In this document: positions 1 through 15,203 of the stretch, one piece after another
Layout of the letters: each line of letters begins with the position of its first letter
Numbering within the stretch: the stretch's first letter is position 1
Assembly (NCBI GenBank): GCA_943370145.1
Contig: CALRPY020000008.1
Coordinates: 24,328 to 88,327, forward strand
Length of the DNA: 64,000 nucleotides
Reading direction: 5' to 3'
From: Hydrogenophaga intermedia
Lineage (GTDB): Bacteria; Pseudomonadota; Gammaproteobacteria; Ga0077536
The notes under the pieces: generated by a model
The model's input: the letters and a program-made list of their open reading frames with translations, nothing else
What the model was told of the DNA's origin: nothing
Databases searched by the model: none
Program-made: the position numbers and the translations under genes

Positions 1-3000
1 CGGCGCCATCATCGCAAACAACCCGCTGCCGCTCACCACCACCGACGGTCGGCCCATCGTCACCGGCAGCCTGCAGGCCCACGCCAGCGGCAGGCCCACG
101 CTGTTCGAACAGCGTTACATCGTCGAGGACCGCACCGCGCTGGACACGCGCGCGGAATATCGCGTCACGGATGCCAACGATTTCTTCAGCGCCCAGGCCG
201 TCGCGAAAGCGGTGCCGACGCCGCTGCTGCCGCGCGATGCCGGCGCGCTGTCGCTGAACGCGAACCGCGCACTGTCGCTGGGCGCGAGCATCGTGCGCGA
301 CAGCGGCGCCGGTCGCGGCGCGCGCGTCGATATCGGCGCGGAGGACATCACGATCGTCGCGGCCGCGGCCGGCACCCCGGGGACGGTCGAACTCGTCGCC
401 GGGGACCTCGCGGCGCTCGGCGCCGACAGCCTGCTGATCGGCGGTGCGCGCAGCGTCGCCGGCAGTCTCACGACGATAGAGCGCGTCGACGCCCGCAGTC
501 TGCGCGTCGCGCCGGGCACGGCGCTGTCCGTCCCTGAACTGATCCTGGTCGCGGCGGACAGCCTGGACGTCGGCGCGAATGTCGGCCTGCGCGGGGAGGG
601 CGGTCCGCGCGGCACCACGCGCGGCACGCTCGCGATCGAGGGTGACAATGCGCTGCTCGTCGCGGGCAGCGATCGCCTGCCGCAGGTCCAGCGCTCGAAC
701 ATCGGCGCCAACCCGAACGCCAGCCTCAGCGTGGACGCGAGCGCAAGCCTCTTCGGGGCCGGCAGCCTCGTACTCGACAGCACCGGCACGGGACTCATCG
801 ACGGCACGCTCGAGGTGGGCAGTGGCGGTGGTTTGCGCCTCGGCGCCGACAGCATCGGGCTCGGCAGCGTGCCGGGCGCTTTTGCCGGTCTCGCGCTCGA
901 TGCGGGGCGCCTGCAGCAGCTCGGCGTTGCCGAGCTGGAACTCGCCTCGGGCACCACGCTCGCGCTGTTCGGCAGCTTCGCGCTCGAGGTCGACTCGCTG
1001 CTGTTCGACGCGCCTGGGCTCGCCGGACAGACCAATGGCGCGACGGTCGAACTGCGCGCCAACACCCTCACGGTGCAGAACACGCGCGGCCTCGTCGCGG
1101 CCGACCCGGGCGCGGCGGGCACGTTGCTGCGTTTCGCCGGCCGCAGTGCCGGTGTCGACGGTCTCGTGCTGAATTTCGGCGCGGCGGCGGGCGCGGATGA
1201 CGGGCTGGTAGACGGTGGTGACTTCGACGTGACGGGTTTCGGCCGCGTGGAAATCGACGCCGGCTCGGTGCTCGGGCTCGCCGAGCACGGCTTCGACGTG
1301 GATGCCGGCATGTTCCAGATCACGAGCGGCGTGATCGGCAGCCGGTCGGGCGCCTCGCTGGGCCTGTCATCGACCGGACAGCTGACGACCCTGACGCGCC
1401 CCGGCACGGATGTCGCGGCACTGGCGCCCGGGCTGCTCGGCGGCCAGGTCACCCTCACCGGCGCAACGCTGACGCATGGTGCGCTGGTGCTCGCGCCGGG
1501 CGGCAGCATCACGTTGCGGACTACCGCAGGCGACCTGCAGGTGGCCGGCGAAGTGAACGCGGCGGGGCTCTCGAACCTTGATTTCGGCCTCACCAGCCTC
1601 GGCACGCCGGGCGGTCGAGTCCGGCTGTCCGCCGTGGGCGGGGATCTCGAACTGCTGGCGGGTGCACGGCTTGACGTCTCCGGCGGCCAGGGCGAGCGCG
1701 CCGGCAGCGGCGGCGACCTCACGCTCGAAGCGCCGGATGGCAGCCTCGCGCTCGCGCCCGGCGCGAGCCTGCTCGGCGGCGCGGACGTGTCGCAGACCGG
1801 CGCGCGGCTGTTCGTGGACGCGGGCAGCCTCGGCGGTGGCCTCGCGGGACTTGCCGGCACGCTGGCGAACGCCGGCTTCAGTGAGACGAAGGCCGTTCGC
1901 GTGCGGGGCGCGGGTGAGGCGTTGACGCTCACGGCCGGCAGCACACTCGCGGCGCGCAATCTCATGCTCGCGGCGGACCAGGGCGATGTGGCGCTGCTCG
2001 GCACGCTCGATGCGAGCGGCGAGTGGGCCGGCCGCATCGACGTCGCGGCCGGCGGCGCGCTGACGGTCGGCGCCGGTGCCCGGCTCGATGCTTTCGCGAC
2101 CGGCGGTTTCCTCGCGCCCAACGGCACGCCGGGCAATCCCGTCTACGACGACGGACGCGCGGGCGGCACCGTGGCGCTGTTCGCTGCGGACGGTCGGCTC
2201 GAACTCGACGGCGGCACAATCGACGTGCACGGCACGATGGTCGACGTGAACGGCAATCTCGTCAGCGAGGCGAGCGGCCGCGTGCAGCTGATGGCGCGCC
2301 GCACCTCGTCCTCGGCCATCGACGCCGACCTCATCGCGACCGGCTTCAACGGCGCGCGCCAGATCGAAATCTTCGGCAACCAGCGTTACACGACCGGGCA
2401 GTTCGGAAGCATCCTTGCGGACGCCACGGCCTTCAGCGGCAACGCGGCGGCCATCCAGAACGATCTCGGTCTCGGCGGCAACACGGCGGCGCGCGTCGCA
2501 CCGGGCGTCGAGGTGCGCACGAACGGGGACTTGAGCTTCACCGCGCTAGGGCTCAATCTCACCAACCTCTTCAACGCGACGAACGTGCGACCAGGTCTTC
2601 TCACCGTGCGCACGACCGGCACGCTGACGCTCAACACCGACATCATCGACGGCACCGTCAACGACCGCTTCGGCCGGCGTGTCGCGGATCAGAACTTCAG
2701 CTGGGGCTATGTCTTTGCCGGCGGCGCCGACCTCGCCGCGGCCGATCTGGCAGCCGTGACAGCGGGCGCCGGCGGTGTCGTGTTCAACAGCGGCATCGAC
2801 CTCATCACGGGCTCCGGTGACATCACGCTCGCGAGCGGCGGCGACCTCACCTTCGGCAGCAATGCGACGGTGCAGGCCATCGGCCGCCACCTGTCGGCGA
2901 ATTTCCGCGGCACGATCTCGGACGCCTTCACCGGTCCGAACGACAACATCCAGCAGACGGCCGTGCGCCGCTTCCTGCCGGGCGTGTCCTTCCCCGAGGC

Positions 3001-5461
3001 TGCCGGCGACATCCGGCTCCGCTCGTCCGGCAACGTGACGGCGACGCGCCCGACGCAGCAGCTCTCGCAGTGGGCCACGCGCATCGGCGGTTCGGACATC
3101 GGCGGTGACGTCGGCAACGCGCCGGACGCCTGGGGCGTGCAGCTCGGCCAGTACGCCGGCAACATTGCGACCTTTGGCGGCGGCAATGTGAGCCTCGACG
3201 CCGGCGGCAGCGTCGCGGGCGTGCAACTCAGCAACTTCAGCACCGGCCGGCAGGAGGGTGTGAACGAGTACAACCGTGCAACGCGCGTGTGGACCGTCAC
3301 CTCGAACGTCGTCAACGAACTCGGTGGCGGGCGGGTGGACCTGCGCGCAGGCGGCGACGTGGCCGGGCTCGACCTTCACGTGACCCGCGGCGAAGGTTTC
3401 GTGAAGTCGGGGCAGGGCATCGTCGGCAATGACACCGGGCTCGCGAACCAGCTCGCACGGCTCTTCGTCGGCGACGCGCGGCTCACGCTGGAGGCGGCCC
3501 GCGACATCGATCTCGGGACCGTGATAGACCCCAACACGCTGTTGCTCGCGGTCGCGCCGGTCGCGAACCCGCAGCCGGTCAACACGCGCTTCGAGACCTT
3601 CTATTTCACGTACACGCAGAATTCCGCGTTGAACCTCATGAGCAGCGCCGGCGACGTGCTGCTTGCTAACGACGCGGCCGGCACCAGCGGGATCAACATC
3701 GCGGGCGACCCGCTGGTGAACCTCTACCCGGGCGAAGTCGGCGTGTATGCCGCGAGCGGCCGGATCGGGATCGCGCAGCGCATGAACCTGTTCCCGACGC
3801 AGAACGGCACCCTGCGCCTCGTCGCGGCCGATGACATCGGCCTGTCCGAGGCGGGCGCTGCGGTCGGGCAGATCGTGCAGATGGACAGCGATCCGGCGCT
3901 TATGCCGGCGCTTGGCAACGGCTTCGCGCACCCGGTCAACGCCGGCGCGCAGAACGCGTTCACGCTGGCGCTCTACGAGCGCTTCGAACTCGAGCGGGAC
4001 GAGAACGATCGCCGTCTCACCGACCACGCGGCGACGCCCGTTCACACGGGGGACCGCGTGCCCAATCTCGTGCTGAGCCGCGACGGCGACATCGCCGACA
4101 CCGAGTTCGTGCTCGCCAAGCAGTCCTGGTTCACCGCCGGCCGCGACATCACGCAGATCATCGCGGCCGTGCAGAACGTCGAAGCGACGGACATGAGCCT
4201 CTTCCTGGCCGGTCGCGACTTCATGATGAACGCGCCGCGCGTGCCGGGCGTCGGTCGCATCACGACGACCAGCGGCATCGGCGTCGACATCGCCGGGCCG
4301 GGCACGGCGCAGTTCGTCGCCGGCCGCGACATCGGGCTCGGCACGTCGGTCGGCTTGCGCTCGATTGGCGATTTCGCGAATCCCGCGCTGGCCGACCAGG
4401 GGGCCGACCTGACCCTGCTTGCGGGTGTTGGAAACGCGCCGGACTGGGCCGCTTTCGCGGACGAATACCTGTTCGAACCGGCTTACGCCGCGACACTCGC
4501 CGCGTTCCTCGACGCCCGCGGCGTGCCGGCGGGGGTGCCCGAGGCGCGCTTCGCGCAGTTGACCGCCGCCGATCAACGCGAACTGCTGCTGCAGGTCCTG
4601 TTCGCCGAACTGAAGCAAGCGGGGCTTGCGGCCTCCGACCCCGCCGGCAGCGGCTTCAACGATTACTCGGCCGGTTTCGACGCGCTGGGCACCTTGTTCC
4701 CCGGCGACTTCGCCGGCGACATCACGACTGCGCTCAGCACGGTGCAGACGCAGGATGGCGGTGACATCAACCTCGCGGTGCCGGGCGGTCTGATTGACGC
4801 GGGCCTCACCTCCACCGCGGGGCTCGCCGGCAGCGGGGAATTCAAGGAAGCGATTGAACTCGGCTACATCGCCTTCCGCAGCGGCAGCATCAACGCGTTC
4901 GTGCGCGACAGCTTCAACGTCAACAGCACGCGCGTCTTCGCGCAATCCGGTGGCGACATCCTGATCTGGTCGTCGGAAGGGGACATCGACGCGGGCCGCG
5001 GCGCGAAGAGCGCGGCCTCCATTCCGCTCGTGGACCCGGTGTTCGACGAATTCGGCAACTTCGTCGCCGAGCCGCCACTCGCGGTGTCCGGCAGCGGTAT
5101 CCGCAACTTCGCGCCGCCGGGCGTGGAAGCCGGCACGCTCTACCTGTTCGCGCCGCAGGGCGTGATCAACGCCGGCGACGCGGGTATCGGCTCGGCCGGC
5201 AACGTGGTGCTCGGCGCGACGCAGGTCATCGGCGCGGACAACATCGACATCGGTGGGGTCGCGGTGGGCGTGCCGACCACCGACACGGGCGGTATCGCGG
5301 CGGGCCTCGCCGGCATCGGCGACGTTGCCGCCAGCGCCACCCAATCCACCGCCAAGGCGGCCGAGGCCGCGGCAGCGGCGGAGGCGGCTGCGGCGGCCTC
5401 CGCGGGTGATCAGACGCAGATGTCGGTGATTTCGGTCGAGGTGCTCGGCTTCGGCAGTTGA
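1..5461 (+). CDS. Giant filamentous-haemagglutinin-like (FhaB/TpsA-type) beta-helical exoprotein, 5'-truncated by the window edge
   Basis: The frame of ORF 212..5461 stays open back to nt 2 (GAIIANNPLPLTTTDGRP...), so the true start is upstream of the window. Degenerate Gly/Ala/Leu/Asp-rich beta-helix-type repeats run throughout. The C-terminal block 'SSEGDIDAGRGAKSA...GVINAGDAGIGSAGNVVLGA' resembles the FhaB-family C-terminal (DUF3739-like) region. Ends in an Ala-rich tail. Confidence 0.75.
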   Translation, partial: GAIIANNPLPLTTTDGRPIVTGSLQAHASGRPTLFEQRYIVEDRTALDTRAEYRVTDANDFFSAQAVAKAVPTPLLPRDAGALSLNANRALSLGASIVRDSGAGRGARVDIGAEDITIVAAAAGTPGTVELVAGDLAALGADSLLIGGARSVAGSLTTIERVDARSLRVAPGTALSVPELILVAADSLDVGANVGLRGEGGPRGTTRGTLAIEGDNALLVAGSDRLPQVQRSNIGANPNASLSVDASASLFGAGSLVLDSTGTGLIDGTLEVGSGGGLRLGADSIGLGSVPGAFAGLALDAGRLQQLGVAELELASGTTLALFGSFALEVDSLLFDAPGLAGQTNGATVELRANTLTVQNTRGLVAADPGAAGTLLRFAGRSAGVDGLVLNFGAAAGADDGLVDGGDFDVTGFGRVEIDAGSVLGLAEHGFDVDAGMFQITSGVIGSRSGASLGLSSTGQLTTLTRPGTDVAALAPGLLGGQVTLTGATLTHGALVLAPGGSITLRTTAGDLQVAGEVNAAGLSNLDFGLTSLGTPGGRVRLSAVGGDLELLAGARLDVSGGQGERAGSGGDLTLEAPDGSLALAPGASLLGGADVSQTGARLFVDAGSLGGGLAGLAGTLANAGFSETKAVRVRGAGEALTLTAGSTLAARNLMLAADQGDVALLGTLDASGEWAGRIDVAAGGALTVGAGARLDAFATGGFLAPNGTPGNPVYDDGRAGGTVALFAADGRLELDGGTIDVHGTMVDVNGNLVSEASGRVQLMARRTSSSAIDADLIATGFNGARQIEIFGNQRYTTGQFGSILADATAFSGNAAAIQNDLGLGGNTAARVAPGVEVRTNGDLSFTALGLNLTNLFNATNVRPGLLTVRTTGTLTLNTDIIDGTVNDRFGRRVADQNFSWGYVFAGGADLAAADLAAVTAGAGGVVFNSGIDLITGSGDITLASGGDLTFGSNATVQAIGRHLSANFRGTISDAFTGPNDNIQQTAVRRFLPGVSFPEAAGDIRLRSSGNVTATRPTQQLSQWATRIGGSDIGGDVGNAPDAWGVQLGQYAGNIATFGGGNVSLDAGGSVAGVQLSNFSTGRQEGVNEYNRATRVWTVTSNVVNELGGGRVDLRAGGDVAGLDLHVTRGEGFVKSGQGIVGNDTGLANQLARLFVGDARLTLEAARDIDLGTVIDPNTLLLAVAPVANPQPVNTRFETFYFTYTQNSALNLMSSAGDVLLANDAAGTSGINIAGDPLVNLYPGEVGVYAASGRIGIAQRMNLFPTQNGTLRLVAADDIGLSEAGAAVGQIVQMDSDPALMPALGNGFAHPVNAGAQNAFTLALYERFELERDENDRRLTDHAATPVHTGDRVPNLVLSRDGDIADTEFVLAKQSWFTAGRDITQIIAAVQNVEATDMSLFLAGRDFMMNAPRVPGVGRITTTSGIGVDIAGPGTAQFVAGRDIGLGTSVGLRSIGDFANPALADQGADLTLLAGVGNAPDWAAFADEYLFEPAYAATLAAFLDARGVPAGVPEARFAQLTAADQRELLLQVLFAELKQAGLAASDPAGSGFNDYSAGFDALGTLFPGDFAGDITTALSTVQTQDGGDINLAVPGGLIDAGLTSTAGLAGSGEFKEAIELGYIAFRSGSINAFVRDSFNVNSTRVFAQSGGDILIWSSEGDIDAGRGAKSAASIPLVDPVFDEFGNFVAEPPLAVSGSGIRNFAPPGVEAGTLYLFAPQGVINAGDAGIGSAGNVVLGATQVIGADNIDIGGVAVGVPTTDTGGIAAGLAGIGDVAASATQSTAKAAEAAAAAEAAAAASAGDQTQMSVISVEVLGFGS

Positions 5462-5573
5462 TGACAAGTAGGCGAACGCATTCGCGTTCACAGGATTGAA
5501 ATAATTGGTGGATAACGTGACGGGGCTCACATGGCAGGGCCCGCGCGCCACCGTTCAAAGATACAAGGGAAAC

Positions 5574-7373
5574 ATGAAACTGAAGTCGCGCATCGTGTGC
5601 ACGGCCAGCCTGCTTTTGGCCACGCTCACCGCTCATGCCTGGTGGTCGCCGGACTGGACGGCCCGCAAGGAACTGAAGCTGAACACCACGGCGGCGGGGG
5701 TTGACCTCAAATCTGCGCTGACCGAGCCCACCGTGCTCGTGCGCCTGCACCAGGGAAATTTTCCGCAGTTCCTGAACGTGCGCGACGGCGGCGCGGACTT
5801 CCGGGTGATGTTGGGGGACGACAAGACCCCGCTGAAGTACCACGTCGACCGCTTCGATCCGATCAGCCAGATGGCGTTCCTGTGGGTCAAGCTCCCGGTG
5901 CTCAACCCCCAGTCCACCGAGGAAAAGCTCTATCTCTATTTCGGTAACGGCGCGGCGGTCAAAGCCGACGAGCCGGGACAGACCTATGACGTCGCGACCG
6001 CCGCGAGCTTTCATTTCAACGAAGCGCAGGGGCTGCCGGTCGACAGCACGGCCTACGCGACGAGCGTCACGGCCGGTGAAGTCTTTCCGAATCCTGCGTC
6101 GATCATCGGCGCCGGCGTCACGCTGCCCGGCACGCAGGCGCTGGCGATTGCCGACAACGGCGCGCTTGCAGCCACGGCCGCCAACGGCTGGACCTTCTCG
6201 ACGTGGGTGCGGCTTGCCGCGCCGACCGAGGCCGCGGCCTACCTCATGGACAGGCAGACGCCGGGTGGCAGGGCGTCGCTGCTCGTCAACGGCGCCAACC
6301 TGGTTGCGCGCTATGGCGACGTCGAAATCGCCGGCGGCGTGCCCCTCACGGCGGGCACCTGGGCGCACGTCGCCGTCACGTTCGGTGCCAGCGAAGCGAA
6401 GCTTTTCGTCAACGGTGTCCAGGCCGGCGCGGCCGCGATCACCGGCGTGGACATGGCCGGTGCGATCAGCGTCGGCGGTGGCGCCGACGGCAGCGGCCTG
6501 CTCGCGGCCGATCTCGACGAACTGAAGGTTTCCACCGTCGCGCGCAGCCCGGAGTGGGTGTTGTTCGAGGCGGCGATCCAGGGCGAACGCAATGATGCGA
6601 TCGTGACCTATGGCGCGGACCAGGCCGCTGATGCCGCCGGTGAAGGAGAGGGTGAGGAAAAGGGCGGTTACTTCGGCACCATTTTCCAGTTCGTGTTCGG
6701 CTCCGAGGACGCGATCGTCGAGCAGGTGGTGATCGGGGTCTGCGCGTTCATGGCGCTGGTGGCGATGCTGGTGATGTTCAGCAAGGCGCTGTTCCTGTCG
6801 CGGGCCCGCGCGGCCTCGACGCGCTTCCTGCGCGCCTACGGCCAGCTCGCGATAGGCGGGCAGGGCAACGAGGGCATCATGGCGCTGCTCGACAAGGAGA
6901 AGCGCTACGGCATCTCGCCGCTGTTCCAGGTCTATCGCCAGGCCCTCGCCGAGGTGCGCAAGCGCATGTCGACGGCCACCGGCAACGCGCCCGCCGGGCT
7001 GGACGAGAAGGCCATGGGCTCCATTCGGGCCGCGATGGACGCCGTGATGGTGCGCCAGCAGCAGAAGATGAATGCGCTGATGGTGTTGCTGACCATCGCC
7101 ATTTCAGGCGGGCCGTTCATCGGGCTCTTCGGCACGGTGGTGGGCGTGATGGTCACCTTCGCCTCGATCGCCGCGAGCGGCGACGTGAACATCAACGCCA
7201 TCGCGCCCGGCATGGCCGCCGCGCTGCTCGCGACGGTGGCCGGTCTCGGCGTCGCGATCCCGGCGCTGTTCGGCTACAACTACCTCGGTTCGAAGGTCAA
7301 GGAACTCTCCGCGGACATGCACGTGTACGCGGACGAACTGACCGCGCGAGTCGTCGAGGAATTCGGCCACTAG
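5574..7373 (+). CDS. exbB: MotA/TolQ/ExbB proton-channel protein with a long N-terminal extracytoplasmic DUF2341 + LamG (concanavalin-A-like) module
   Basis: ATG at 5574 preceded by AAGGGA. Signal peptide MKLKSRIVCTASLLLATLTAHA. DUF2341-like 'WWSPDWTARKELKLN...ADFRVMLGDDKTPLKYHVDRFD...FLWVKLP...LYLYFGNG', then a LamG-like block (WTFSTWVRL...GTWAHVAVTF...LFVNGV...DELKVS). C-terminal ExbB core with 3 TM segments (FIGLFGTVVGVMVTF...APGMAAALLATVAGLGVAIPAL). Confidence 0.85.
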   Translation: MKLKSRIVCTASLLLATLTAHAWWSPDWTARKELKLNTTAAGVDLKSALTEPTVLVRLHQGNFPQFLNVRDGGADFRVMLGDDKTPLKYHVDRFDPISQMAFLWVKLPVLNPQSTEEKLYLYFGNGAAVKADEPGQTYDVATAASFHFNEAQGLPVDSTAYATSVTAGEVFPNPASIIGAGVTLPGTQALAIADNGALAATAANGWTFSTWVRLAAPTEAAAYLMDRQTPGGRASLLVNGANLVARYGDVEIAGGVPLTAGTWAHVAVTFGASEAKLFVNGVQAGAAAITGVDMAGAISVGGGADGSGLLAADLDELKVSTVARSPEWVLFEAAIQGERNDAIVTYGADQAADAAGEGEGEEKGGYFGTIFQFVFGSEDAIVEQVVIGVCAFMALVAMLVMFSKALFLSRARAASTRFLRAYGQLAIGGQGNEGIMALLDKEKRYGISPLFQVYRQALAEVRKRMSTATGNAPAGLDEKAMGSIRAAMDAVMVRQQQKMNALMVLLTIAISGGPFIGLFGTVVGVMVTFASIAASGDVNINAIAPGMAAALLATVAGLGVAIPALFGYNYLGSKVKELSADMHVYADELTARVVEEFGH

Positions 7374-7389
7374 GCCGGGGGAAGCAGCG

Positions 7390-7800
7390 ATGGCCGGCGC
7401 GTCGAAAGAAGACAACGAACCATACGACGACATCAACATCACGCCTATGCTCGATCTGGCGTACGTGCTGTTGATCATCTTCATCATCATGACCACCGCC
7501 TCCGTGCAGGGCGTGAAGGTCAACCTGCCGAAGGCGAGCAACGCGCCGAGCCTGGCGGAGCCGAAGACCAAGGCCGTGACCATCACGGCGCAGGGCCAGG
7601 TGTTCCTGGATACCTACCCGGTGACGATGCAGGAACTCGAGTCCCGCCTGGCGGGTTTCCGCGCGGCGGATCCGGAGTTGCCGGTGGTGGTGAAGGGCGA
7701 CTCGACGGTGCAGTACCAGATGGTGATGGACGTGCTCGATCTGCTCGGCCGTCTCAACATCACCCAGGTCGGCCTCGTCACCCAGAAGCTCGTGAAGTAA
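7390..7800 (+). CDS. exbD: ExbD/TolR biopolymer transport protein
   Basis: 136 aa. Shows 'DINITPMLDLAYVLLIIFIIM' (conserved Asp in the single TM) and an ExbD periplasmic domain. Starts 17 nt after exbB. Confidence 0.9.
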   Translation: MAGASKEDNEPYDDINITPMLDLAYVLLIIFIIMTTASVQGVKVNLPKASNAPSLAEPKTKAVTITAQGQVFLDTYPVTMQELESRLAGFRAADPELPVVVKGDSTVQYQMVMDVLDLLGRLNITQVGLVTQKLVK

Positions 7801-7804
7801 GGCC

Positions 7805-8479
7805 GTGCGCAACGAAGACGACGATATCGACAGCGGCGGCCGCCGCTGGGTGCCCTGGGTGGGCGCCGGCGTCATCCTGGCAGGCTTTGCGGCCGTGATC
7901 TGGTTCGCCGTGTCGTCGCTGTCCGGCACCAAGGCGCCCGAGCCGCCGAAGGTCCAGCAGATCTCCATCGTGCAGCCGCCGCCGCCCCCGCCGCCGCCGC
8001 CCGAGATGGAAGAGACGCCGCCGGAGCCCGAGGAGGAAGTCGACGTGCCCGAACCGGAGCCGGAGCCCGTCGCGGATACACCGGAAAGCGACGAACCGCC
8101 GCCCGGAGAGGATCTCGGTCTCGATGCGGAAGGCGTGGCCGGCGCGGACGGCTTCGGGCTGCGTGCAAAGAAAGGCGGGCGTGGCCTCATTGGCGGTTCT
8201 GGCGACCCGCAGGCCTGGTATGCCGGGGTGCTGTCACGCGAACTGCAGCGCCTGCTGTCGGGCGTCAAGGAAGTCCGCAGCGGGCGCTACGCGGTGGTCG
8301 TGCGCATCTGGGTGGCCGAGGACGGCAGCATCAAGGACAGCGAGATCGTGCGCGGCAGTGGCAATGCGGGAGTCGATGCCGCCATCGAGCGCGCACTCGC
8401 CGCCGGCGTGCGGATGTCTGAAGCGCCGCCGGCCGATTTGCCGCAGCCGATCAGGCTTCAGATCACGTCGCGCTCCTGA
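7805..8479 (+). CDS. tonB: TonB-family energy transducer
   Basis: GTG start. N-terminal TM (WVPWVGAGVILAGFAAVIWF), Pro/Glu-rich spacer (QPPPPPPPPPEMEETPPEPEEE...) and a TonB_C-like C-terminus (VVVRIWVAEDGSIKDSEIVRGSGNAGVDAAIERAL). Confidence 0.8.
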   Translation: MRNEDDDIDSGGRRWVPWVGAGVILAGFAAVIWFAVSSLSGTKAPEPPKVQQISIVQPPPPPPPPPEMEETPPEPEEEVDVPEPEPEPVADTPESDEPPPGEDLGLDAEGVAGADGFGLRAKKGGRGLIGGSGDPQAWYAGVLSRELQRLLSGVKEVRSGRYAVVVRIWVAEDGSIKDSEIVRGSGNAGVDAAIERALAAGVRMSEAPPADLPQPIRLQITSRS

Positions 8480-8514
8480 GCGATCAAAAACAACATTCTC
8501 CCCACGGACAGCCA

Positions 8515-10227
8515 GTGAAGACACAGATGAACCCTCGTTTGCCGCAGCCCCGACCCCTTGCGCTTGCGCTCAGCCTTGCGCTCGCGAGCGGCAGCGCGCT
8601 GGCGAACACCGCGCCCGACCAGCGCACGGAATTGCTGGAACTGAAGAACACGATCGTCAATCTCGTCGATGCGCTGGTGGAGCAGAAGGTGCTGAGCCCG
8701 GAGCAGGCCGACAAGCTCAAGAAGGAAGCCGCCGCGAAGGCGCGCGTGCAGGCCGCGACCGAGCCTGCGCAGGTGCTCACGGAGCCTGCGCCGGGCGCCG
8801 CCGCCGGCAAGACGGTGGTGCGCGTTCCCTACGTGCCGGAGTTCGTGAAGGACGAAATCCGCAAGGAGGTGAAGGCCGAACTGCGCCACGAAGTCATGCA
8901 GGACGTGGTCGCGACGGCGAAGGAGGAGAAGTGGGGCACCAAGGACGCGCTGCCTGACTGGGTCAACCGCTTCACGCTGAACGGCGACTTCCGCGTGCGT
9001 TACCAGCACGACATGTACGCAGACGAGAACCAGCCGTTTTCCTACCCGGATTTCCGCTCGATCAACGACGCGGGCAGCATCACGGGGCCGAACACCTTCC
9101 TCAATACCACCGAAGACCGCGACCGCGTGCGCTTCCGTTTCCGCTACGGCTTCACGGCGCAGGTGAACGAGGACATCCAGGCCATCGCCCGCATCTCGAC
9201 CGGCAATCTCGAGAACCCGCTGACGATGCAGCAGAACGCGGGCAACGATTTCAACCGCTACACGATCGGTCTCGACCGCGGATATATCCGCTGGCGGGAC
9301 ATGACGGACAGCAACTACGAGTGGCTGTCGGCGCAGATCGGCCGCTTCCCGGTGCCGTTCATGACGCTGACCGAAATGGTCTGGGACAACGACCTGCAGG
9401 TCGAAGGCCTGAGCACGACCGGCACCTACCGTTTCAACCTCGACGGCAGCGAGTCCGGCGGGATCACGCGCGACACCGGTGTCTGGATGACGCTGGCCGC
9501 GCTGCCCATGCTGGACGACGAACTGGCCTTCGATGATGGCTCCTCGAACGACAAGTGGCTGCTGGGTGGGCAGCTCGGCCTCGAGCACCGTTTCAAGAGC
9601 CCGTGGTCGGCCAAGGCCGGCCTCGCGCTCTTCGACTACACGAACGTGGTCGGCAAGTTCAACCCGAACGGCCCCGCCGGCAGCACGCTTTTCGATTGGA
9701 CCGCGCCCGGCCAGCTCGTGAAGGGCAACACGATGTACCCGATCAAGTTCAACGTCGCGGGCGACCCCACGCTGTTCGGCCTGGCGTCGGACTTCACGAT
9801 CGTCAACCTGAACGCCGAATTCCGTTACTCGCACTTCAGCCCCGTGGACATCTGGCTGACGGTCGATCTTGCGAAGAACATCGGATATGACGGAGGCGAC
9901 ATCCTCGACCGCACCGGCGTCGCCGTCGACGAGAAGACGAATGCCTGGACCCTGCAGTTCGACGTTGGGTATCCGGAGATCAGGAAACTGGGCGACTGGC
10001 ACCTCGGCGCCTTCTACCGCCACCTGCAGCGCGATGCCGTGCTCGACGGCTACACGGACTCCAACTTCCATCTGGGCGGCACCGACGCCAAGGGCTTCGC
10101 GCTCATCGGTGAGTACGGCATCGCCAGCAACACCTGGCTGCGCATGCGCTACTACAGCGTGGACGAGATCGACCTCGCGCCGCTCGGCATCGACAACATC
10201 CATCTCGAACTGAGCACGAGGTTCTGA
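8515..10227 (+). CDS. Porin-like outer-membrane beta-barrel protein with an N-terminal helical/charged extension
   Basis: Signal peptide ending ASGSALA-NT. Lys/Ala/Glu-rich helical segment, then alternating-hydrophobic beta-strand sequence rich in aromatic residues. C-terminal Phe (LELSTRF) is typical of OMPs. No TBDT plug is recognisable. Start could be GTG 8515 or ATG 8527. Confidence 0.7.
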   Translation: MKTQMNPRLPQPRPLALALSLALASGSALANTAPDQRTELLELKNTIVNLVDALVEQKVLSPEQADKLKKEAAAKARVQAATEPAQVLTEPAPGAAAGKTVVRVPYVPEFVKDEIRKEVKAELRHEVMQDVVATAKEEKWGTKDALPDWVNRFTLNGDFRVRYQHDMYADENQPFSYPDFRSINDAGSITGPNTFLNTTEDRDRVRFRFRYGFTAQVNEDIQAIARISTGNLENPLTMQQNAGNDFNRYTIGLDRGYIRWRDMTDSNYEWLSAQIGRFPVPFMTLTEMVWDNDLQVEGLSTTGTYRFNLDGSESGGITRDTGVWMTLAALPMLDDELAFDDGSSNDKWLLGGQLGLEHRFKSPWSAKAGLALFDYTNVVGKFNPNGPAGSTLFDWTAPGQLVKGNTMYPIKFNVAGDPTLFGLASDFTIVNLNAEFRYSHFSPVDIWLTVDLAKNIGYDGGDILDRTGVAVDEKTNAWTLQFDVGYPEIRKLGDWHLGAFYRHLQRDAVLDGYTDSNFHLGGTDAKGFALIGEYGIASNTWLRMRYYSVDEIDLAPLGIDNIHLELSTRF

Positions 10228-10883
10228 TGACGACGCGCCTCGGATTGCTGGTGGCCTGCGGCCTGTTGCTCGTGGCGGGCGGCGCGCCGGCACAGCAGGG
10301 GAACGAGCAAACGGCGCAGGCCCTTGCTCGCGCGCAGGGGTTGCTGCGACAACTGGCGCAGGAAAAGGCGGCAGTGGACACCGAACTCGCCCAGCTTCGC
10401 GCCGAGAATGCGAAGCTGAAGAAGAGCGTTGGCCGAACCGAGGCGCAACTTGCCGAGTCGCAAGCGAGCCTGGAATCCAGCACCCGCGAAGCCACTAGCG
10501 TGCGCACGAAGCTCGGCGGGACGGAAAAGCGCCTGGAACGCACCACCGGCCAACTGCGCGAGGTCGTGGCGAAGTACAAGGAACAGGCGCTGAAGCTGCG
10601 CGAGACCGAGGCGCAGCGCAACGAACTGCAGGCGAACCTGGAGGCGACGAGCAGGCAGCTGGAAGACGCCGAGCGCAAGAATCTCGCGCTGTACCAGATC
10701 AACCGGGACGTCCTCGCCGAGTTCGAGCAGGAAGGTCCATGGGACGGCCTGCTGCGTAAAGAACCGGTGACCGGCTTCAAACAGGTTGAAATCGAGAACC
10801 TGGTGCAGGAGTACGAAGACAGGATGCGCGATCAGCTCCGCGGTGACAGCCTCGAAAAGCTGTCGGAACCCGGCGCGAATTGA
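10227..10883 (+). CDS. Secreted/periplasmic coiled-coil protein (hypothetical)
   Basis: Its ATG overlaps the stop of the OMP gene (TGATG). Has a signal peptide (LLVACGLLLVAGGAPAQQ). Long heptad-like Glu/Lys/Leu/Gln-rich sequence (LAQLRAENAKLKKS...LRETEAQRNELQANLEA). Confidence 0.7.
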   Translation: MTTRLGLLVACGLLLVAGGAPAQQGNEQTAQALARAQGLLRQLAQEKAAVDTELAQLRAENAKLKKSVGRTEAQLAESQASLESSTREATSVRTKLGGTEKRLERTTGQLREVVAKYKEQALKLRETEAQRNELQANLEATSRQLEDAERKNLALYQINRDVLAEFEQEGPWDGLLRKEPVTGFKQVEIENLVQEYEDRMRDQLRGDSLEKLSEPGAN

Positions 10884-10987
10884 CAAAAGAAGGCATTACC
10901 GACAACCGCGCCGATGGCTTCCCGGCCCGGGCGACGGGCGCCGCGCTTGCGGCGCAGTCGGCCCGCAATGCCCATTGAGAACAGGAG

Positions 10988-11521
10988 TTGAACATGGGAT
11001 CTCGGCTGAACGGCTCTGGCGAAGCGGGCGAACCGCGTTCCGCGCCCGCCGGCGACGGTGCGGGCATACACGACAACGCGCGGCGCAGCGTTTCCATCCG
11101 CATCAACACGTCCGACTATGGGCGAATCAAGGTGGCGGCGCGGCGACTGCACGCCAAGGAGGCGGATATCTTCCGCTACCTGCTGCAGGTGGGGCTCAAC
11201 AAACTCGGGCCGCTGCTGGGCGCCGAACTCGACGACCAGGCCTTCCTGCGCACGCTGGTGGACCTGGGACCGGATCTCGCCGCCAATTTCGACGTGTCCG
11301 CGCGCGAGTTCGTGAGTCTGCTGAGCGCGTTCACCGGCAAGGATGCGCCGGCCTTTGACGAGACCGACCTCGAACTGGTGGACCTTGCGGGTACGCATCC
11401 CCGCATGGTCCAGAGCCGCCTCGCGGAGTTCCGCGGCCGGCCGGTCAACGAGCATGAGCTGCGCGGCGTGCTGCACGATTACCTGCTGATGAAATACCAG
11501 GCCCCGGGCGCGGCCATCTGA
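10988..11521 (+). CDS. Hypothetical protein, possibly ribbon-helix-helix-like near the N-terminus
   Basis: 177-aa ORF with plausible coding composition. 'RRSVSIRINTSDYGRIKVAARRLHAKEADIFRYLL' resembles a CopG/RHH strand-helix-helix. No further recognisable domain. Confidence 0.5.
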   Translation: MNMGSRLNGSGEAGEPRSAPAGDGAGIHDNARRSVSIRINTSDYGRIKVAARRLHAKEADIFRYLLQVGLNKLGPLLGAELDDQAFLRTLVDLGPDLAANFDVSAREFVSLLSAFTGKDAPAFDETDLELVDLAGTHPRMVQSRLAEFRGRPVNEHELRGVLHDYLLMKYQAPGAAI

Positions 11522-11531
11522 ACGGCCGGCC

Positions 11532-11945
11532 TCATTCGGGCGGCAGCACGTCGACCGCGATTTCCCCCTCGAGGCAGGCGCGGTAGCGGGCGCCATCCAT
11601 CTCGCCGCCGATGCGGGCCGCTCCGGCCGCTCCGGCCGCACCGTCCCTGGCCGTCAGCCGCAGGCGCCGCGCAGATGCCCGGCACGCCGCGGCGCGCTCC
11701 ACCTCTGCCGCAAGTTCGGCCGGTGGATCGAAACCTTCCAATCGCAGGCACTCCATCATCGCCCCGGCATCCACGCCCGCCGGAATCCTGATCTTCAACG
11801 GCACGTTGACCACGGCCCGCTCGGTGTAAAGCCCTGAGCTCAGGTTGATTTCCTGCCACAGGGCCATCTGCTTCGCGCAGTCGTCGGCGGCAAGCGCCGG
11901 ATTCGATATCGCAAGGGTCGTGAGCAGGGCGGGCAGGATACGCAT
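11532..11945 (-). CDS. Small secreted hypothetical protein
   Basis: Signal peptide MRILPALLTTLAISNPALA-ADD when started at the second Met. Convergent with the preceding gene. No recognised family. Confidence 0.45.
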   Translation of the reverse strand: MRILPALLTTLAISNPALAADDCAKQMALWQEINLSSGLYTERAVVNVPLKIRIPAGVDAGAMMECLRLEGFDPPAELAAEVERAAACRASARRLRLTARDGAAGAAGAARIGGEMDGARYRACLEGEIAVDVLPPE

Positions 11946-12377
11946 GCGCTTGTGGCCGGAAAGCAATCAGGTGGACACAGTGTCTTCCCCCCGCCTTACA
12001 TCGGCATGACGAGGGGATGTTTCGGGGTGTGACGAATTTCTCCTGACTGACAGGTGCTGGAAGCTGGCGTGTCTTGCATTGAGGAGTATCGTCACAGACA
12101 TGTCATGTGTCCGGGTTCCAATGGTGCCCGAAGGTGACGGGACAATCCGGCGGGAAGGCGGTGCGCGCTTCCGGCCGCGCTTCGCTATAAGCGCTCGAAA
12201 TTCGCGGGCGCTGTGCAGAAGTCACGTTTTATTAGATAGTTGCAGTGTATTTCTTCATTCGGCCCTATGATTGGTAATGCGCATCGGCCATCCCCCGGGA
12301 CATACATATACATGTATCGCAACCCCGGGCTCGCCCGGTGACTTTCCTCAACAGGATCAGTGAAACACTCAGCAACC

Positions 12378-13820
12378 ATGCAAATCATCCCTCTCATCCT
12401 GGCCGGCGGTGGTGGCACCCGCTTGTGGCCGCTGTCCCGTGGGCATTATCCGAAACAGTTCCTGGCGGTGACGCCCGGCGCCACGCTGCTGCAGGGTACC
12501 CTGCAGCGCGTGGGCAAGGACGCGCTGGCCGGGCTGCAGCCCCCGGTGGTCGTCTGCAACGAGGAACACCGCTTCCTGGTCGGTGAGCAGGCGCGCCAGA
12601 TCGGGCGGCCTTTCGAGCGCATCATCCTCGAGCCCATCGGCCGCAACACGGCGCCCGCGCTGACCTGCGCCGCGCTGTGCTATTCGCAGGACGGCGCGGA
12701 CCCGCTGCTGCTGATGATGCCGGCGGACCACCTCGTGCAGGACGCGGCCGCCTTCCAGCGCGCGGTGCTTGCGGGCAGCAACCATGCCCAGGCCGGCAAG
12801 CTCGTGACCTTCGGCGTGGTCCCCACGAATCCCGAGACCGGCTACGGCTACATCCAGCTCGGCGACGCGCTGGGCAAGGATGACCCGGCGGTGAACGCAA
12901 TCGCGGCGTTCAAGGAAAAGCCGAACCAGGCCGTCGCCGAGCAGTATCTCGCCAGCGGCCAGTACCGCTGGAACGCCGGCATCTTCCTGATGAAGGCGAG
13001 CGTGTGGCTCGCCGCCATCGAACGTTTCCAGCCCGAAATCCTCGCCGCCTGCCGCAAGGCGGTGGCGGCCGGCAGCCTCGACGGCGAGTTCTACCGCCTG
13101 GACAAGGAAGCCTTCGCCGCCTGCCCCAGCGATTCCATCGACTACGCCGTCATGGAGCGCATCGCCGCGGCGGACCCGGCCAGTTGCGCCGTGGTCTCGC
13201 TGGATGCCGGCTGGAGCGACGTCGGCTCGTGGTCGAGCATCTGGGAGGTTTCGGAGAAATCCGACAGCCGCAACGTCACCCGCGGTGACGTCTGCGCCAT
13301 CGACAGCCACGACAACCTCATCTTCGCCGAATCGCGCCTCGTGGCGGCGGTGGGCTGCGAGGACATGGTGATCGTGGAAACGCCGGACGCCGTGATGGTC
13401 GCGCCGAAGAATCGCGCGCAGGACGTGAAGGCCATCGTCGACTGGCTGGCGCAGCAGGGCCGCGAGGAGCGCCTGATGCACCGGCGCGTGTACCGTCCGT
13501 GGGGTACCTACGAGGGCGTGGACGCCGGCGAACGCTTCCAGGTGAAGCGCATCGCGGTGAAGCCGGGCGCTTCCCTGTCGCTGCAGATGCATCACCACCG
13601 GGCGGAGCACTGGATCGTCGTGAAGGGCACGGCGAAGGTGACGAGCGGCGAGAAGACCTTCCTGCTCAGCGAGAACCAGAGTTGCTATATCCCGCTGGGC
13701 GAAACGCACCGGCTGGAGAACCCGGGCTCCATCCCGCTCGAGATCATTGAAGTCCAGTCCGGCGCCTACCTGGGCGAAGACGACATCGTGCGTTTCGAAG
13801 ACAAGTACAAGCGGGCCTGA
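12378..13820 (+). CDS. manC: Bifunctional mannose-1-phosphate guanylyltransferase / mannose-6-phosphate isomerase (type II PMI-GMP)
   Basis: 'IIPLILAGGGGTRLWPLSR...YPKQF' nucleotidyltransferase N-terminus and a cupin C-terminus 'RPWGTYE...VKRIAVKPGASLSLQMHHHRAEHWIVVKGTA'. Matches ManC/CpsB/XanB/AlgA architecture. Start placed at ATG 12378 (MQIIPL). Confidence 0.9.
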   Translation: MQIIPLILAGGGGTRLWPLSRGHYPKQFLAVTPGATLLQGTLQRVGKDALAGLQPPVVVCNEEHRFLVGEQARQIGRPFERIILEPIGRNTAPALTCAALCYSQDGADPLLLMMPADHLVQDAAAFQRAVLAGSNHAQAGKLVTFGVVPTNPETGYGYIQLGDALGKDDPAVNAIAAFKEKPNQAVAEQYLASGQYRWNAGIFLMKASVWLAAIERFQPEILAACRKAVAAGSLDGEFYRLDKEAFAACPSDSIDYAVMERIAAADPASCAVVSLDAGWSDVGSWSSIWEVSEKSDSRNVTRGDVCAIDSHDNLIFAESRLVAAVGCEDMVIVETPDAVMVAPKNRAQDVKAIVDWLAQQGREERLMHRRVYRPWGTYEGVDAGERFQVKRIAVKPGASLSLQMHHHRAEHWIVVKGTAKVTSGEKTFLLSENQSCYIPLGETHRLENPGSIPLEIIEVQSGAYLGEDDIVRFEDKYKRA

Positions 13821-13847
13821 GGCCGATGACTTCCCAGCAGACCGGAC

Positions 13848-14313
13848 GTCTTTTCACCTCTCCCGCAGGCGGGAGCGGCGACGGTTTCCACCTTTCCCGC
13901 CTGCGGGAGAGGTCGACGGCGAGGCCGGCGGGTGAGGGGCGCCCCAGTTGGTGCGGCGCCACTCTGGAACAACCCTCACCCGTCCGCTGCGCGGCCGGCC
14001 TCTCCCGGGGCGGGAGAGGCGACGGTTCTCACCTCTCCCGCCTGTGGGAGAGGTCGACGGCTAAGCCTGTGGGTGAGGGACGCCTCCTTCAGCGCGGCGC
14101 CATTCTCGTAGGTTGGGCTGACGCAGGAAGCCCAACATCCTTCACCACGCCCGCGTGCGGGAGCGGCGAACATCCTCACCTCTCCCGCCTGCGGGAGAGG
14201 TCGACGGCGAAGCCGGCGGGTGAGGGGAGCTTCAGTTGGCGCGGCGCCAGTCCGATGCGACCCTCACCCGTCCGCTGCGCGGCCGGCCTCTCCCGGAGCG
14301 GGAGAGGCGAAGC
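13848..14313. repeat. REP/BIME-like array of about 50-nt GC-rich palindromic units in alternating orientation
   Basis: Near-identical units 'CCCTCACCCGTCCGCTGCGCGGCCGGCCTCTCCCGG(G/A)GCGGGAGAGGCGA' at about 13972 and 14262. The inverse form 'CACCTCTCCCGCCTG(C/T)GGGAGAGGTCGACGGC...GGGTGAGGG' occurs at about 13889, 14030 and 14177. Each unit contains the hairpin CTCTCCCGC-N3-GCGGGAGAG. Confidence 0.85.
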
Positions 14314-14343
14314 TCATTCACGATAGCGCCGAACCAAAAGCCA

Positions 14344-14649
14344 GTGCGCCTCACGCCAACCCAGGTCGACACCATCCGCGACACCGCCCGACGCTGTTTC
14401 GGGCAGGACGCCGACGTGTGGCTGTTCGGCTCGCGGGTGGACGATACGCGGCGCGGTGGTGACATCGATCTCTACATCGAGACCGACCTCGACACGCCGG
14501 AAGCCAGCTGGGACGCGGAGCGCCGCTTTCTCGGTGCGCTCTACCTGGCGCTGGGCGAACAGAAGATAGACGTGGTGGTGATGCGGCGGGGCGACCAGCG
14601 GCAGCTGCCGATTTTCGAGGTCGCGCGCGCACAGGGAGTCCACCTGTGA
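14344..14649 (+). CDS. Minimal nucleotidyltransferase (MNT-type) antitoxin-like protein
   Basis: 'LFGSRVDDTRRGGDIDLYIETD' is the GS-x(n)-DxD polymerase-beta-type NTase motif. About 100 aa. Start set at in-frame GTG 14344 because the upstream part of ORF 14236.. lies in the repeat array. The start is uncertain. Confidence 0.7.
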   Translation: MRLTPTQVDTIRDTARRCFGQDADVWLFGSRVDDTRRGGDIDLYIETDLDTPEASWDAERRFLGALYLALGEQKIDVVVMRRGDQRQLPIFEVARAQGVHL

Positions 14650-14741
14650 CCCTGTCGCCCATGGAACTGCGGCTGCAGGCGCAATTCGAGCAGTGCGCGC
14701 GTTTGGTCTTACACGCGGCCGCAACGCGATTGGGCGGCTGA
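14646..14741 (+). pseudogene. 31-codon ORF; possible 5' remnant of the MNT partner (HEPN-type) gene
   Basis: Its GTG overlaps the MNT stop (GTGA), the usual coupling of MNT/HEPN pairs. It terminates after 31 codons (VTLSPMELRLQAQFEQCARLVLHAAATRLGG*), exactly where the lower-GC hicA begins (TGATG). No HEPN Rx4-6H motif is present. Confidence 0.3.
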
Positions 14742-14989
14742 TGGGTCGAAAAGAACGGATTCTCACGGCGCTTTTGGGAGCGAGAGCCGACGCCAGCACC
14801 GACTTTGCCGACTTGGTGTACCTTCTTGCGCAATTCGGATTTGTGATGCGAATCAAGGGTTCGCACCATATATTCTGGAAGGCCGGCGTGGACGAGATTC
14901 TGAACCTGCAGCCGGCAGGCTCAAAAGCCAAGCCGTACCAAGTGAAGCAGGTTCGCAATGTCATCATCAAGTACAGGTTGCATATGTAG
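14741..14989 (+). CDS. hicA: HicA-family mRNA interferase toxin
   Basis: 82 aa. 'FGFVMRIKGSHHIFWK' carries the GSHH motif of HicA/YcfA proteins. Visibly lower GC than its neighbours. Confidence 0.8.
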   Translation: MGRKERILTALLGARADASTDFADLVYLLAQFGFVMRIKGSHHIFWKAGVDEILNLQPAGSKAKPYQVKQVRNVIIKYRLHM

Positions 14990-14990
14990 C

Positions 14991-15203
14991 ATGGGCGCCA
15001 AATACGAAATCATCATCTACTGGAGCGGCGAGGATCAGGCCTTTGTCGCCGAAGCGCCCGAACTGCCGGGTTGCATGGCCGACGGCGCGAGCTACCAGGA
15101 GGCCGTGGCGGCAATCGAAGTCGCGATCGACGAATGGGTCGAAACGGCCCGGCAGATTGGCCGCGCCGTCCCTGAACCCCGCGGTCGCCTGATGTTCGCC
15201 TGA
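14991..15203 (+). CDS. hicB: HicB-family antitoxin (short form, no obvious DNA-binding domain)
   Basis: 'YEIIIYWSGEDQAFVAEAPELPGCMADGASYQEAVAAIEVAIDEWVE' is typical of the HicB/UPF0150 fold. Starts 2 nt after the hicA stop. Confidence 0.8.
   Translation: MGAKYEIIIYWSGEDQAFVAEAPELPGCMADGASYQEAVAAIEVAIDEWVETARQIGRAVPEPRGRLMFA

Follow-up and report, generated by a model that had tools for sequence, protein, structure and literature searches.

Why would a complete Ton-type motor be inherited with a giant secreted protein and a porin-like outer-membrane protein, with no TonB-dependent transporter (TBDT) beside it? This question is raised by a six-gene cluster at one end of a 64,000-nucleotide stretch of Hydrogenophaga intermedia DNA (GCA_943370145.1, contig CALRPY020000008.1, positions 24,328 to 88,327 of the forward strand), hereafter called the window. 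According to textbooks, type V secretion is self-contained and energy-independent, and TonB systems serve plug-type transporters. At the genomic level the cluster breaks both expectations: a giant TpsA exoprotein is passed on along with a motor and a stalked porin that has no plug. The cluster very probably belongs to the pdtA-(phdA-pdtB)-exbB2-exbD2-tonB4-PA0696-PA0697 family known from Pseudomonas aeruginosa, and of the readings of it, a role tied specifically to the exoprotein has the best support. As an explanation of the whole, we favor a PdtA-type cluster with a dedicated motor acting on the giant, the porin or both, and we do so tentatively, giving it close to an even chance of being right.

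Six genes conserved as a unit

Open reading frame (ORF) calls and reading of the sequence placed six tightly spaced genes at 2-10883 on the forward strand (Table 1). In order, they encode a giant exoprotein of the two-partner secretion (TPS) type, a stator subunit with a large periplasmic domain, an ExbD/TolR-family protein, a TonB-like transducer, an outer-membrane protein of the Porin_5 family and a secreted coiled-coil protein. The gaps between them are 112, 16, 4 and 35 nt, followed by a one-base TGATG overlap. An earlier note on this DNA had described six same-strand genes with very short gaps, and all six were recovered; its spacings agree with ours except for the first, given there as 113 nt and read here as 112.

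We scanned an alignment of the stator and 15 homologs against one genome per species. A relative of this LamG-bearing stator was encoded by 507 species genomes, and the best 80 loci, none of them from Pseudomonas, were kept for comparison. Most of these 80 carry the same genes in the same order, so that the conservation as a unit in related genomes, on which the earlier note had staked its proposal, was borne out. Searches with the window proteins (tblastn) in the 61 of these loci that extend at least 5.5 kb downstream of the stator detected ExbD and Porin_5 in all 61, TonB in 59 and the coiled-coil protein in 58. On the upstream side, 47 of the best 80 loci extend at least 9 kb; the giant was found in 43 of them, and the giant or its TpsB partner in 44. 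The cluster is strictly collinear in 48 loci among the best 80 of 507. Steroidobacteraceae-type loci have the order giant, porin, coiled-coil protein, stator, and keep all parts in spite of the rearrangement, which argues for functional rather than accidental linkage. The unit is thus conserved across gamma-, beta- and alphaproteobacteria even with a shuffled gene order, and on these counts the association of the genes is far beyond chance. A reverse test that started from the C-terminus of the giant gave a similar picture, with the stator cluster following in four of five DUF3739 protein contexts (L086-L089).

Copy number and orientation vary in one case. A chromosome from a metagenome-assembled genome (OZ257136.1) carries two diverged copies of the whole cluster (L012 and L024), and in the second copy the giant, porin and TonB genes are inverted relative to the stator gene.

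The counterpart in Pseudomonas aeruginosa

The published gene order in P. aeruginosa PAO1 is pdtA (PA0690, TpsA), phdA, pdtB (TpsB), exbB2, exbD2, tonB4, PA0696 (a putative porin), PA0697 (a helical protein with a signal peptide), PA0698 (YbjN), PA0699 (PpiC), PA0700 and PA0701 (LysR) (PMC2729926, PMC7035377). The genes phdA-pdtB-exbB2D2-tonB4-PA0696-PA0701 form one operon that is co-regulated with pdtA (PMC4971064), rather than the separate, unrelated transcription units that the earlier note had considered. Under low phosphate, the cluster depends on the sigma factor VreI and on PhoB (PMC4971064, PMC7035377). Llamas et al. reported in 2009 that TPS, ExbBD and PA0696 homologs associate with PUMA3 genes in Pseudomonas, Burkholderia, Rhodopseudomonas and Janthinobacterium (PMC2729926). 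The arrangement, for which the earlier note knew of no experimentally defined function, is therefore already known as the PUMA3-regulated pdtA/exbB2D2/tonB4/PA0696/PA0697 locus (PMC2729926). In 2020 the Ton system of this cluster was listed as a putative TonB system awaiting characterization (PMC7035377), and in the literature searched, papers on the cluster after these reports contain expression data only.

The window was connected to PAO1 through a locus of Klebsiella quasipneumoniae (L083). This locus encodes, in order, an extracytoplasmic function (ECF) sigma factor, an anti-sigma factor, a filamentous hemagglutinin (4121 aa), TpsB, ExbB, ExbD, TonB, a putative porin, a hypothetical protein, YbjN, a peptidyl-prolyl isomerase, a second hypothetical protein and LysR, which is, compared by description, the published PAO1 layout. 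All six window proteins matched it in order (tblastn; E 1e-7 to 4e-75, 26-57% identity). Loci of Aquabacterium and of the alphaproteobacterium Methylosinus (L084, L085) showed the same core order.

The PAO1 and window clusters share the giant TpsA, ExbB, ExbD, TonB, a putative porin and a helical protein with a signal peptide. They differ in that TpsB lies between giant and stator in PAO1 and is missing from that place in the window, and in that the PAO1 cluster adjoins the Hxc and LapA genes whereas the window cluster adjoins an exosortase/exopolysaccharide (EPS) locus. No phdA, YbjN, PpiC, LysR or vreAIR was detected in the window by tblastn with the L083 and L085 versions as queries. The same queries found no YbjN, PpiC, LysR or vreAIR-type gene in the 80 closest loci (L001-L080), indicating that these are accessory genes of one branch and not part of the core. 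Judged from sequence, the core is six genes without the Pseudomonas-specific extras. The window thus holds one more member of a known family, not a new class of system. What is new is the breadth of its conservation, the near-invariant ISVEVLGFG tail of the giant, the VVRVPYVPE strand of the porin stalk and the loss of a glutamate from the third transmembrane (TM) helix of the stator.

Plasmids also carry such genes: the window stator matched 12 plasmid records (tblastn). In pKqq_SB98_1 (L083), the complete PUMA3-like cluster lies on a conjugative IncFIB plasmid beside insertion sequence elements and an ars operon, so that the system is mobile. A Klebsiella pneumoniae plasmid from a human source (H8, NZ_CP065459.1) likewise encodes a LamG-stator.

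An atypical motor

The stator (599 aa) matched DUF2341 (E 2e-11), Laminin_G_3 (E 2e-18) and MotA_ExbB (PF01618; E 7e-27, 94 bits against a cutoff of 22.9) in Pfam, and this architecture of DUF2341, LamG and channel domain was present in 120 of 120 stator homologs among the matches listed. The NCBIfam equivalog models scored below their cutoffs, TolQ with 120 bits against 221 and ExbB with 83 against 206, and the best relatives of known structure were TolQ (E 2e-17) and then ExbB (E 1e-13). By family profile, the stator is a member of the MotA_ExbB family and neither ExbB nor TolQ proper. Its partner matched PF02472 with 100 bits against a cutoff of 25.4, and scored 94 bits with TolR and 73 with ExbD, both below the equivalog cutoff. 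The earlier note had named the pair ExbB and ExbD; TolQ and TolR are at least as close.

The block from TM2 to TM3 was nearly invariant in the alignment of the stator with its 15 homologs. In TM3 (window 7200-7260), the stator reads APGMAAALLAT where solved TolQ (9kpz/8odt) reads APGIAEALIAT; the canonical TM3 glutamate of TolQ and ExbB is thus an alanine, and the alanine residues are invariant in 16 family members. The ExbD protein is 60-90% identical across loci and keeps the TM aspartate of PMLDLAYVLL in at least 90% of 83 sequences. Four Burkholderiales-type clusters (L084, L086, L088 and L089) contain two tandem ExbD genes in place of one.

The transducer consists of an N-terminal TM helix, a conserved poly-proline spacer, a glycine-rich block with the conserved sequence LGLDAxGxAGxDGFGLxAKKGGRGLIGG, and a C-terminal TonB_2 domain (E 2e-11, 44.5 bits against a cutoff of 22; tonB_Cterm, 30 bits against 27.1). 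Escherichia coli TonB has a conserved histidine in the SHLS motif of its TM segment. No conserved histidine, and almost no conservation at all, was found in the TM segment of 64 members of the window family, and comparison of the window protein with solved structures gave no significant match to any TonB or TolA sequence. Taken together, the LamG crown, the replacement of the TM3 glutamate by alanine, and a TonB that lacks the TM histidine and has gained a glycine-rich block argue against a general-purpose energizer of TBDTs.

Appendages on such stators are known. DUF3450 and DUF2341 are listed as appendages of non-flagellar stator A subunits (PMC12505986). Our literature search found no functional study of DUF2341, DUF3739 or Porin_5, and DUF2341 was mentioned there only as an unexplained stator appendage. 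The TonB2-type systems of Vibrio (TtpB/TtpC/TtpD) are similar in that a Ton stator works with extra periplasmic or membrane proteins, of which TtpB2 and TtpD2 are reported to be essential for TonB2 function (PMC6957404). They differ in energizing ordinary TBDTs, and the window cluster has no TtpC or TPR protein and a DUF3450 match below threshold.

A plugless, stalked porin and a coiled-coil protein

The 570-aa outer-membrane protein matched Porin_5 (PF16930) over model positions 1-535 of 535 (E 3.8e-145, 484.9 bits), and Pfam gave no match to Plug (PF07715) or TonB_dep_Rec (PF00593). An AlphaFold2 (AF2) model built from 58 sequences (predicted local distance difference test (pLDDT) 81.8, predicted template modeling score 0.71) showed an 18-strand barrel without a plug, preceded by stalk helices at residues 36-56, 62-82 and 109-137. 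In Foldseek, the top match was OmpM1 (E 2e-16), followed by OmpF/C-type porins, OprB and AlgE; the best 50 matches were all porins or AlgE-type barrels, with no TBDT among them. A hidden TBDT is ruled out by these three lines, as the earlier note had anticipated in calling the protein a non-TBDT and the motor "receptor-less" within its operon. OmpM1 of Veillonella parvula resembles the window porin in that a porin-type barrel follows a long helical periplasmic stalk. It differs in sequence (~16% identity) and in having an SLH domain for cell-wall attachment, which the window porin lacks.

Across 75 homologs, the stalk, which follows a signal peptide, combines a conserved helix (LLELKNTIxNLVDALV) with a linker that varies and a VVRVPYVPEFVKDEIR segment that is almost invariant; the conserved strand VVRVPYVPEF corresponds to aa 101-110. 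A 719-aa Porin_5 protein (P0174), considered as a TonB-porin "Rosetta stone" fusion, proved to have merely a low-complexity N-terminal extension.

The coiled-coil protein has a signal peptide and, in Pfam, solely sub-threshold coiled-coil matches. Its match to DUF3450 (PF11932) reached E 0.0054 and 16.5 bits against a cutoff of 32.6, and the coiled-coil neighbor of P0001, a stator 94% identical to that of the window, also matched this family weakly. A C-terminal KNxxLY...EPFTG block is conserved in the family.

A conserved tail on the giant exoprotein

The ORF of the giant is already open at base 2, and so extends beyond the 5' end of the window; its stop codon is at 5459-5461. The giant encoded beside P0001 has 3419 aa, and by this comparison the window holds the C-terminal half of a TpsA of about 3400 aa. 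DUF3739 was the sole domain that Pfam detected in the visible part. Since the window begins inside the gene, the expected TPS domain falls outside it. A full-length homolog of 3462 aa (L091) has both the TPS domain (PF05860) and DUF3739, and the TPS domain was also found in the giants of L064, L083, L084 and L085 (E 2e-21 to 5e-35). TpsB (POTRA_2 and ShlB) lies between giant and stator in several loci (L012-14 and others) and upstream of the giant in others (L084, L087). The window, which starts inside the giant gene, gave no TpsB homolog by tblastn, and the TpsB of this cluster probably lies off the window, upstream of the giant, as in L084 and L087.

The last 500 aa of the giant were modeled with AF2 (pLDDT 85.6) as a beta-helix body with a helical insert, the helices spanning residues 163-246 of the model between beta-helix segments 36-155 and 254-437; DUF3739 was modeled as a continuation of the beta-helix. 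A Foldseek search of the PDB with this fold gave nothing better than E 0.86, and its sole weak neighbors were beta-helical adhesins and tailspikes. A sequence search with the last 700 aa matched only fragments or proteins of at most 1223 aa.

Downstream of DUF3739, the protein continues through a linker rich in alanine, serine and glutamine whose length and composition vary among homologs, and ends in a short conserved motif with the consensus [I/L]S[V/F]I[S/T]VEVLGFG. The motif was present in 51 of 52 giant C-termini, as the VEVLGFG type in 41, as an LDVFVxGFG variant in 8 and as close variants in 2, and in 23 of the 52 it ended no more than 2 residues from the C-terminus. Distant DUF3739 proteins retain it as LDFLGFG or VEVLGYG. 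In the AF2 model, the last ~57 residues had low confidence and were not packed against the domain. Such a free, strand-like and conserved tail is what a docking handle would look like.

How the motor could act on the exoprotein

FhaB/FhaC and CdiA/CdiB also involve giant beta-helical TpsA proteins exported N-terminus first. In those systems a periplasmic C-terminal region controls retention or release, and no motor is known to take part. The window giant is set apart from FhaB and CdiA by its DUF3739 region and its ISVEVLGFG tail, both of them specific to its family.

In the scheme that follows, we infer every physical contact and every direction of action. A LamG-crowned pentamer of the ExbB/TolQ type, together with ExbD, would turn the proton-motive force (PMF) into movement of the TonB-like protein, which would not serve plug-type TBDTs. 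This protein could instead reach the VVRVPYVPE strand in the stalk of the porin, the ISVEVLGFG tail of the giant, or both. With export from N- to C-terminus, the tail of the giant would be the last part to leave the periplasm, and the motor might in this way determine whether the giant is retained at the surface, released or passed through to the end. The secreted coiled-coil protein could serve the stator as a periplasmic accessory. That the motor acts in this way, on the tail of the giant, the porin stalk or both, and so brings about display, release or final export, we regard as possible, if doubtful. A narrower form is an energy-coupled type Vb pathway, in which the motor would grip the periplasmic tail by its terminal, TonB-box-like strand, directly or via the stalked plugless porin, and use the PMF to hold, retract, release or finish exporting the fiber; we consider this form unlikely.

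Outward movement of protein powered by a Ton system has a precedent in Oar of Myxococcus xanthus, to which the secretion of PopC is attributed (PMC6434023). Oar differs from the window system in being a plug-containing TBDT, and its cargo PopC is not a TPS protein.

Several points weigh against a motor that acts on the giant or the porin. TPS secretion is established as needing no inner-membrane source of energy. Neither our analysis nor the literature searched contained a contact among motor, porin and giant, and the same literature held no experiment on PMF-energized secretion, anchoring or release of the giant. The likeness of the tail to TonB boxes (D-T-I-T-V-T-A type) serves as a lead only. 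Linkage is also incomplete. Three loci with full flanks, L051, L067 (Methylococcus capsulatus) and L073, contain motor, porin and coiled-coil protein, yet neither a giant nor TpsB was found there within 10 kb; on a Methylomagnum plasmid the motor stands with neither giant nor porin nearby; and L090, the exception in the reverse test, has a giant with no motor nearby. The link to PAO1 is one of gene content and order, 13 genes of L083 being compared by description with the published map. Control by phosphate starvation, and the neighboring phosphatases, fit a role in uptake equally well. In P. aeruginosa, pdtA has its own promoter and the remaining genes are transcribed from PphdA (PMC4971064). 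Transposon mutants in PA0695 (tonB4) and PA0696 matched the wild type in virulence toward zebrafish embryos under overexpression of vreI (PMC2729926).

The cluster occurs in hundreds of species that include an important pathogen, in which phosphate limitation strongly induces it and infection is accompanied by its expression. The tail of the giant and the strand in the porin stalk offer concrete targets for mutagenesis and binding studies in PAO1, where mutants exist. If energy-coupled type Vb secretion were true, it would be the first inner-membrane energy input to TPS secretion or display, and the first TonB-type transducer whose natural client is a barrel or protein without a plug.

Alternative roles for the cluster

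The main rival to a motor that acts on the exoprotein is a role in capture and import, which we consider somewhat unlikely. At the surface or outside the cell, the giant would scavenge a substrate, probably a phosphorus-containing polymer or mineral, and the motor would gate Porin_5 so as to bring in whatever the giant has caught or set free; the motor would then work for uptake and not for the exoprotein as such. The model for such a role is HxuABC of Haemophilus influenzae, one heme-capture operon of HxuA (TpsA), HxuB (TpsB) and HxuC (a TBDT), in which a TPS exoprotein is coupled genetically and functionally to a TonB-energized step at the outer membrane (PMC5422565). The P. aeruginosa cluster fits with this role: it depends on PhoB and low phosphate, has the Hxc type II system and the phosphatases LapA/LapB as neighbors, and, according to the literature, supplies PdtA, PA0696 and PA0698 to the proteins most enriched under phosphate limitation. 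Genes for PhoX or alkaline phosphatase flank L014, L082, L088 and L089, a PstS-like periplasmic binding protein lies at L025, and a type II secretion system at L012. However, HxuC is a TBDT with a plug and relies on the housekeeping TonB, whereas the window cluster supplies a stator and TonB of its own along with an 18-strand Porin_5 that lacks a plug; without a plug or TBDT fold, gating by TonB would need a new mechanism. Phosphate genes, moreover, adjoin the cluster nowhere in the window and do not recur near the 80 closest loci, where exosortase/EPS genes are commoner (14 versus about 5). Import also leaves the near-invariant motif at the extreme C-terminus of the giant unexplained.

A role in signaling is a lesser rival and improbable. 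The TonB-like system, the porin and the giant would form the sensing end of an ECF-sigma pathway of the VreA-VreR-VreI type and report surface engagement of the giant rather than move cargo. Genes for an ECF sigma factor and a FecR-type anti-sigma factor stand beside the cluster in P. aeruginosa (from the literature), in L083, in L085 and in Burkholderia arboris (L081), in two cases together with a VreA-like gene. In the VreA-like protein of B. arboris, an STN domain is joined to a C-terminal TonB_2 domain, and this fusion could bind the strand motifs proposed for the TonB-like protein. Against this, tblastn detected no sigma factor, anti-sigma factor or VreA homolog in the window or the 80 closest loci, indicating that signaling is not the core function of the module, and the full PMF-driven stator is conserved even where these regulators are missing.

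The VreA-like genes themselves lie at L081:8115-8750 (B. arboris) and L085:11040-11768 (Methylosinus), in both cases beside the ECF sigma and anti-sigma genes. In many loci, tblastn with the Methylosinus protein gave matches to the C-terminal part of TonB from the cluster, and VreA-type "receptors" may bind the same partners as the TonB-like protein.

Equally to be counted among the lesser rivals, and of similarly low probability, is a tether comparable to Tol-Pal, in which motor, coiled-coil protein and stalked porin would form an energized link from inner to outer membrane that stabilizes or remodels the outer membrane where a giant adhesin and exopolysaccharide are displayed, with no direct contact to the giant. 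Tol-Pal, too, is a link driven by the PMF whose partner in the outer membrane is no TBDT, and both the NCBIfam scores and the PDB matches given above place the stator pair closer to TolQ/TolR. The best structural match of the porin, OmpM1, is a porin that tethers the outer membrane and has a coiled-coil stalk; the three loci already named retain motor, porin and coiled-coil protein without a giant; and exosortase/EPS loci are recurrent neighbors. Unlike Tol-Pal, the window cluster has no TolB, Pal or CpoB and does have a LamG crown and a TPS linkage. Pfam detected no Pal, TolB or peptidoglycan-binding domain in the cluster, and the association with TPS genes (44 of 47 loci) is tighter than a general envelope function predicts.

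That an ordinary TonB system lies beside an adhesin gene by chance and energizes TBDTs encoded elsewhere is very unlikely: all three canonical families are present and many genomes carry several TonB systems, but Porin_5, coiled-coil and TPS genes remain syntenic with it in three proteobacterial classes and despite rearrangements, the stator has an atypical architecture and has lost the TM3 glutamate, and the divergent TonB matches no solved TonB.

Features and neighborhood of the cluster

Table 1. Positions of the cluster genes and their parts in the window
Feature	Position	Strand	Basis
Giant TpsA-type exoprotein gene, 3' part, 1819 codons + stop	2-5461	+	ORF open from base 2
Helical insertion in C-terminal beta-helix of giant	4445-4696	+	AF2 model
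DUF3739 (PF12545) of giant	4949-5278	+	Pfam E 5e-35, aa 1650-1759
Ala-rich low-complexity linker, DUF3739 to tail motif	5279-5425	+	Homolog comparison, low pLDDT
C-terminal tail motif of giant, VISVEVLGFG	5426-5455	+	Conservation across giant C-termini
Intergenic spacer, giant to stator gene	5462-5573	+	Sequence reading
Stator A: signal peptide, periplasmic DUF2341 + LamG, ExbB/TolQ-type 3-TM channel domain	5574-7373	+	Pfam
Stator B, ExbD/TolR family	7390-7800	+	PF02472 E 1e-28
Divergent TonB-like transducer	7805-8479	+	Pfam/NCBIfam above cutoff
Porin_5 outer-membrane protein	8515-10227	+	PF16930 E 4e-145
Secreted coiled-coil protein, PA0697-like position	10227-10883	+	Signal peptide, weak DUF3450 similarity
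Possible seventh gene, small conserved protein (orf175)	10994-11521	+	tblastn in 18 related loci

The spacer between the giant and stator genes contains a Shine-Dalgarno-like AAGGGA (5565-5570) and a 6-bp palindrome, GAACGC-ATTC-GCGTTC (5474-5489). Consensus scanning found no sigma-70-like promoter inside the cluster, and a scan of the forward strand found no terminator after the giant, coiled-coil or orf175 genes. The promoters of the giant gene fall outside the window. No Rfam family matched within window 1-16000. No convincing pho box was seen in the 112-nt spacer, which was judged by eye only, without a formal scan.

Matches to orf175 lie directly 3' of the coiled-coil gene in the related loci in which it was found, and a 174-aa counterpart adjoins stator P0001. 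The protein had no Pfam match. Its N-terminus looks ribbon-helix-helix-like by eye, and it may be a regulator. A small ORF on the reverse strand (11532-11966), kept in 6 loci, encodes a secreted, cysteine-containing protein with no family match.

Downstream of the cluster and orf175, window 12360-41206 is occupied by a large EPS locus of the exosortase/PEP-CTERM type. It encodes ManC, Poly_export, an XrtA-type chain-length determinant, a tyrosine autokinase, an XrtA-associated ATPase, glycosyltransferases, a flippase, a WecA-like protein, Gmd, a PrsT-like TPR protein and, at 31426-33015, the exosortase XrtD (578 bits against a cutoff of 400). About 14 of the 80 related loci have homologous EPS genes next to the cluster, and TPR, Poly_export and other exosortase-EPS genes were the commonest neighbors in the 80 closest loci. 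A general enrichment of phosphate genes around these 80 loci was looked for and not found, phosphatase neighbors recurring in other branches. Phosphatase, PstS-like or type II secretion neighbors in several unrelated lineages echo the phosphate-starvation context of P. aeruginosa; this pattern is not general.

Two further features were noted in or near the EPS locus. Inside it, window 20700-31100 forms a low-GC island (50-57% versus about 66% elsewhere) of glycosyltransferase and Polysacc_synt genes with a GC content at third codon positions of about 0.5, and looks like a horizontally exchanged, serotype-type cassette. A palindrome-rich repeat, whose cores include ACCTCTCCCGCCTGCGGGAGAGGT, occurs in window 13853-14310 in three copies spaced by ~145 nt. 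The copies lie between manC and an ORF for an MNT-type nucleotidyltransferase (14236-14649) and resemble repetitive extragenic palindromic (REP) or miniature inverted-repeat transposable (MITE) elements; a 166-aa ORF called over them is probably spurious.

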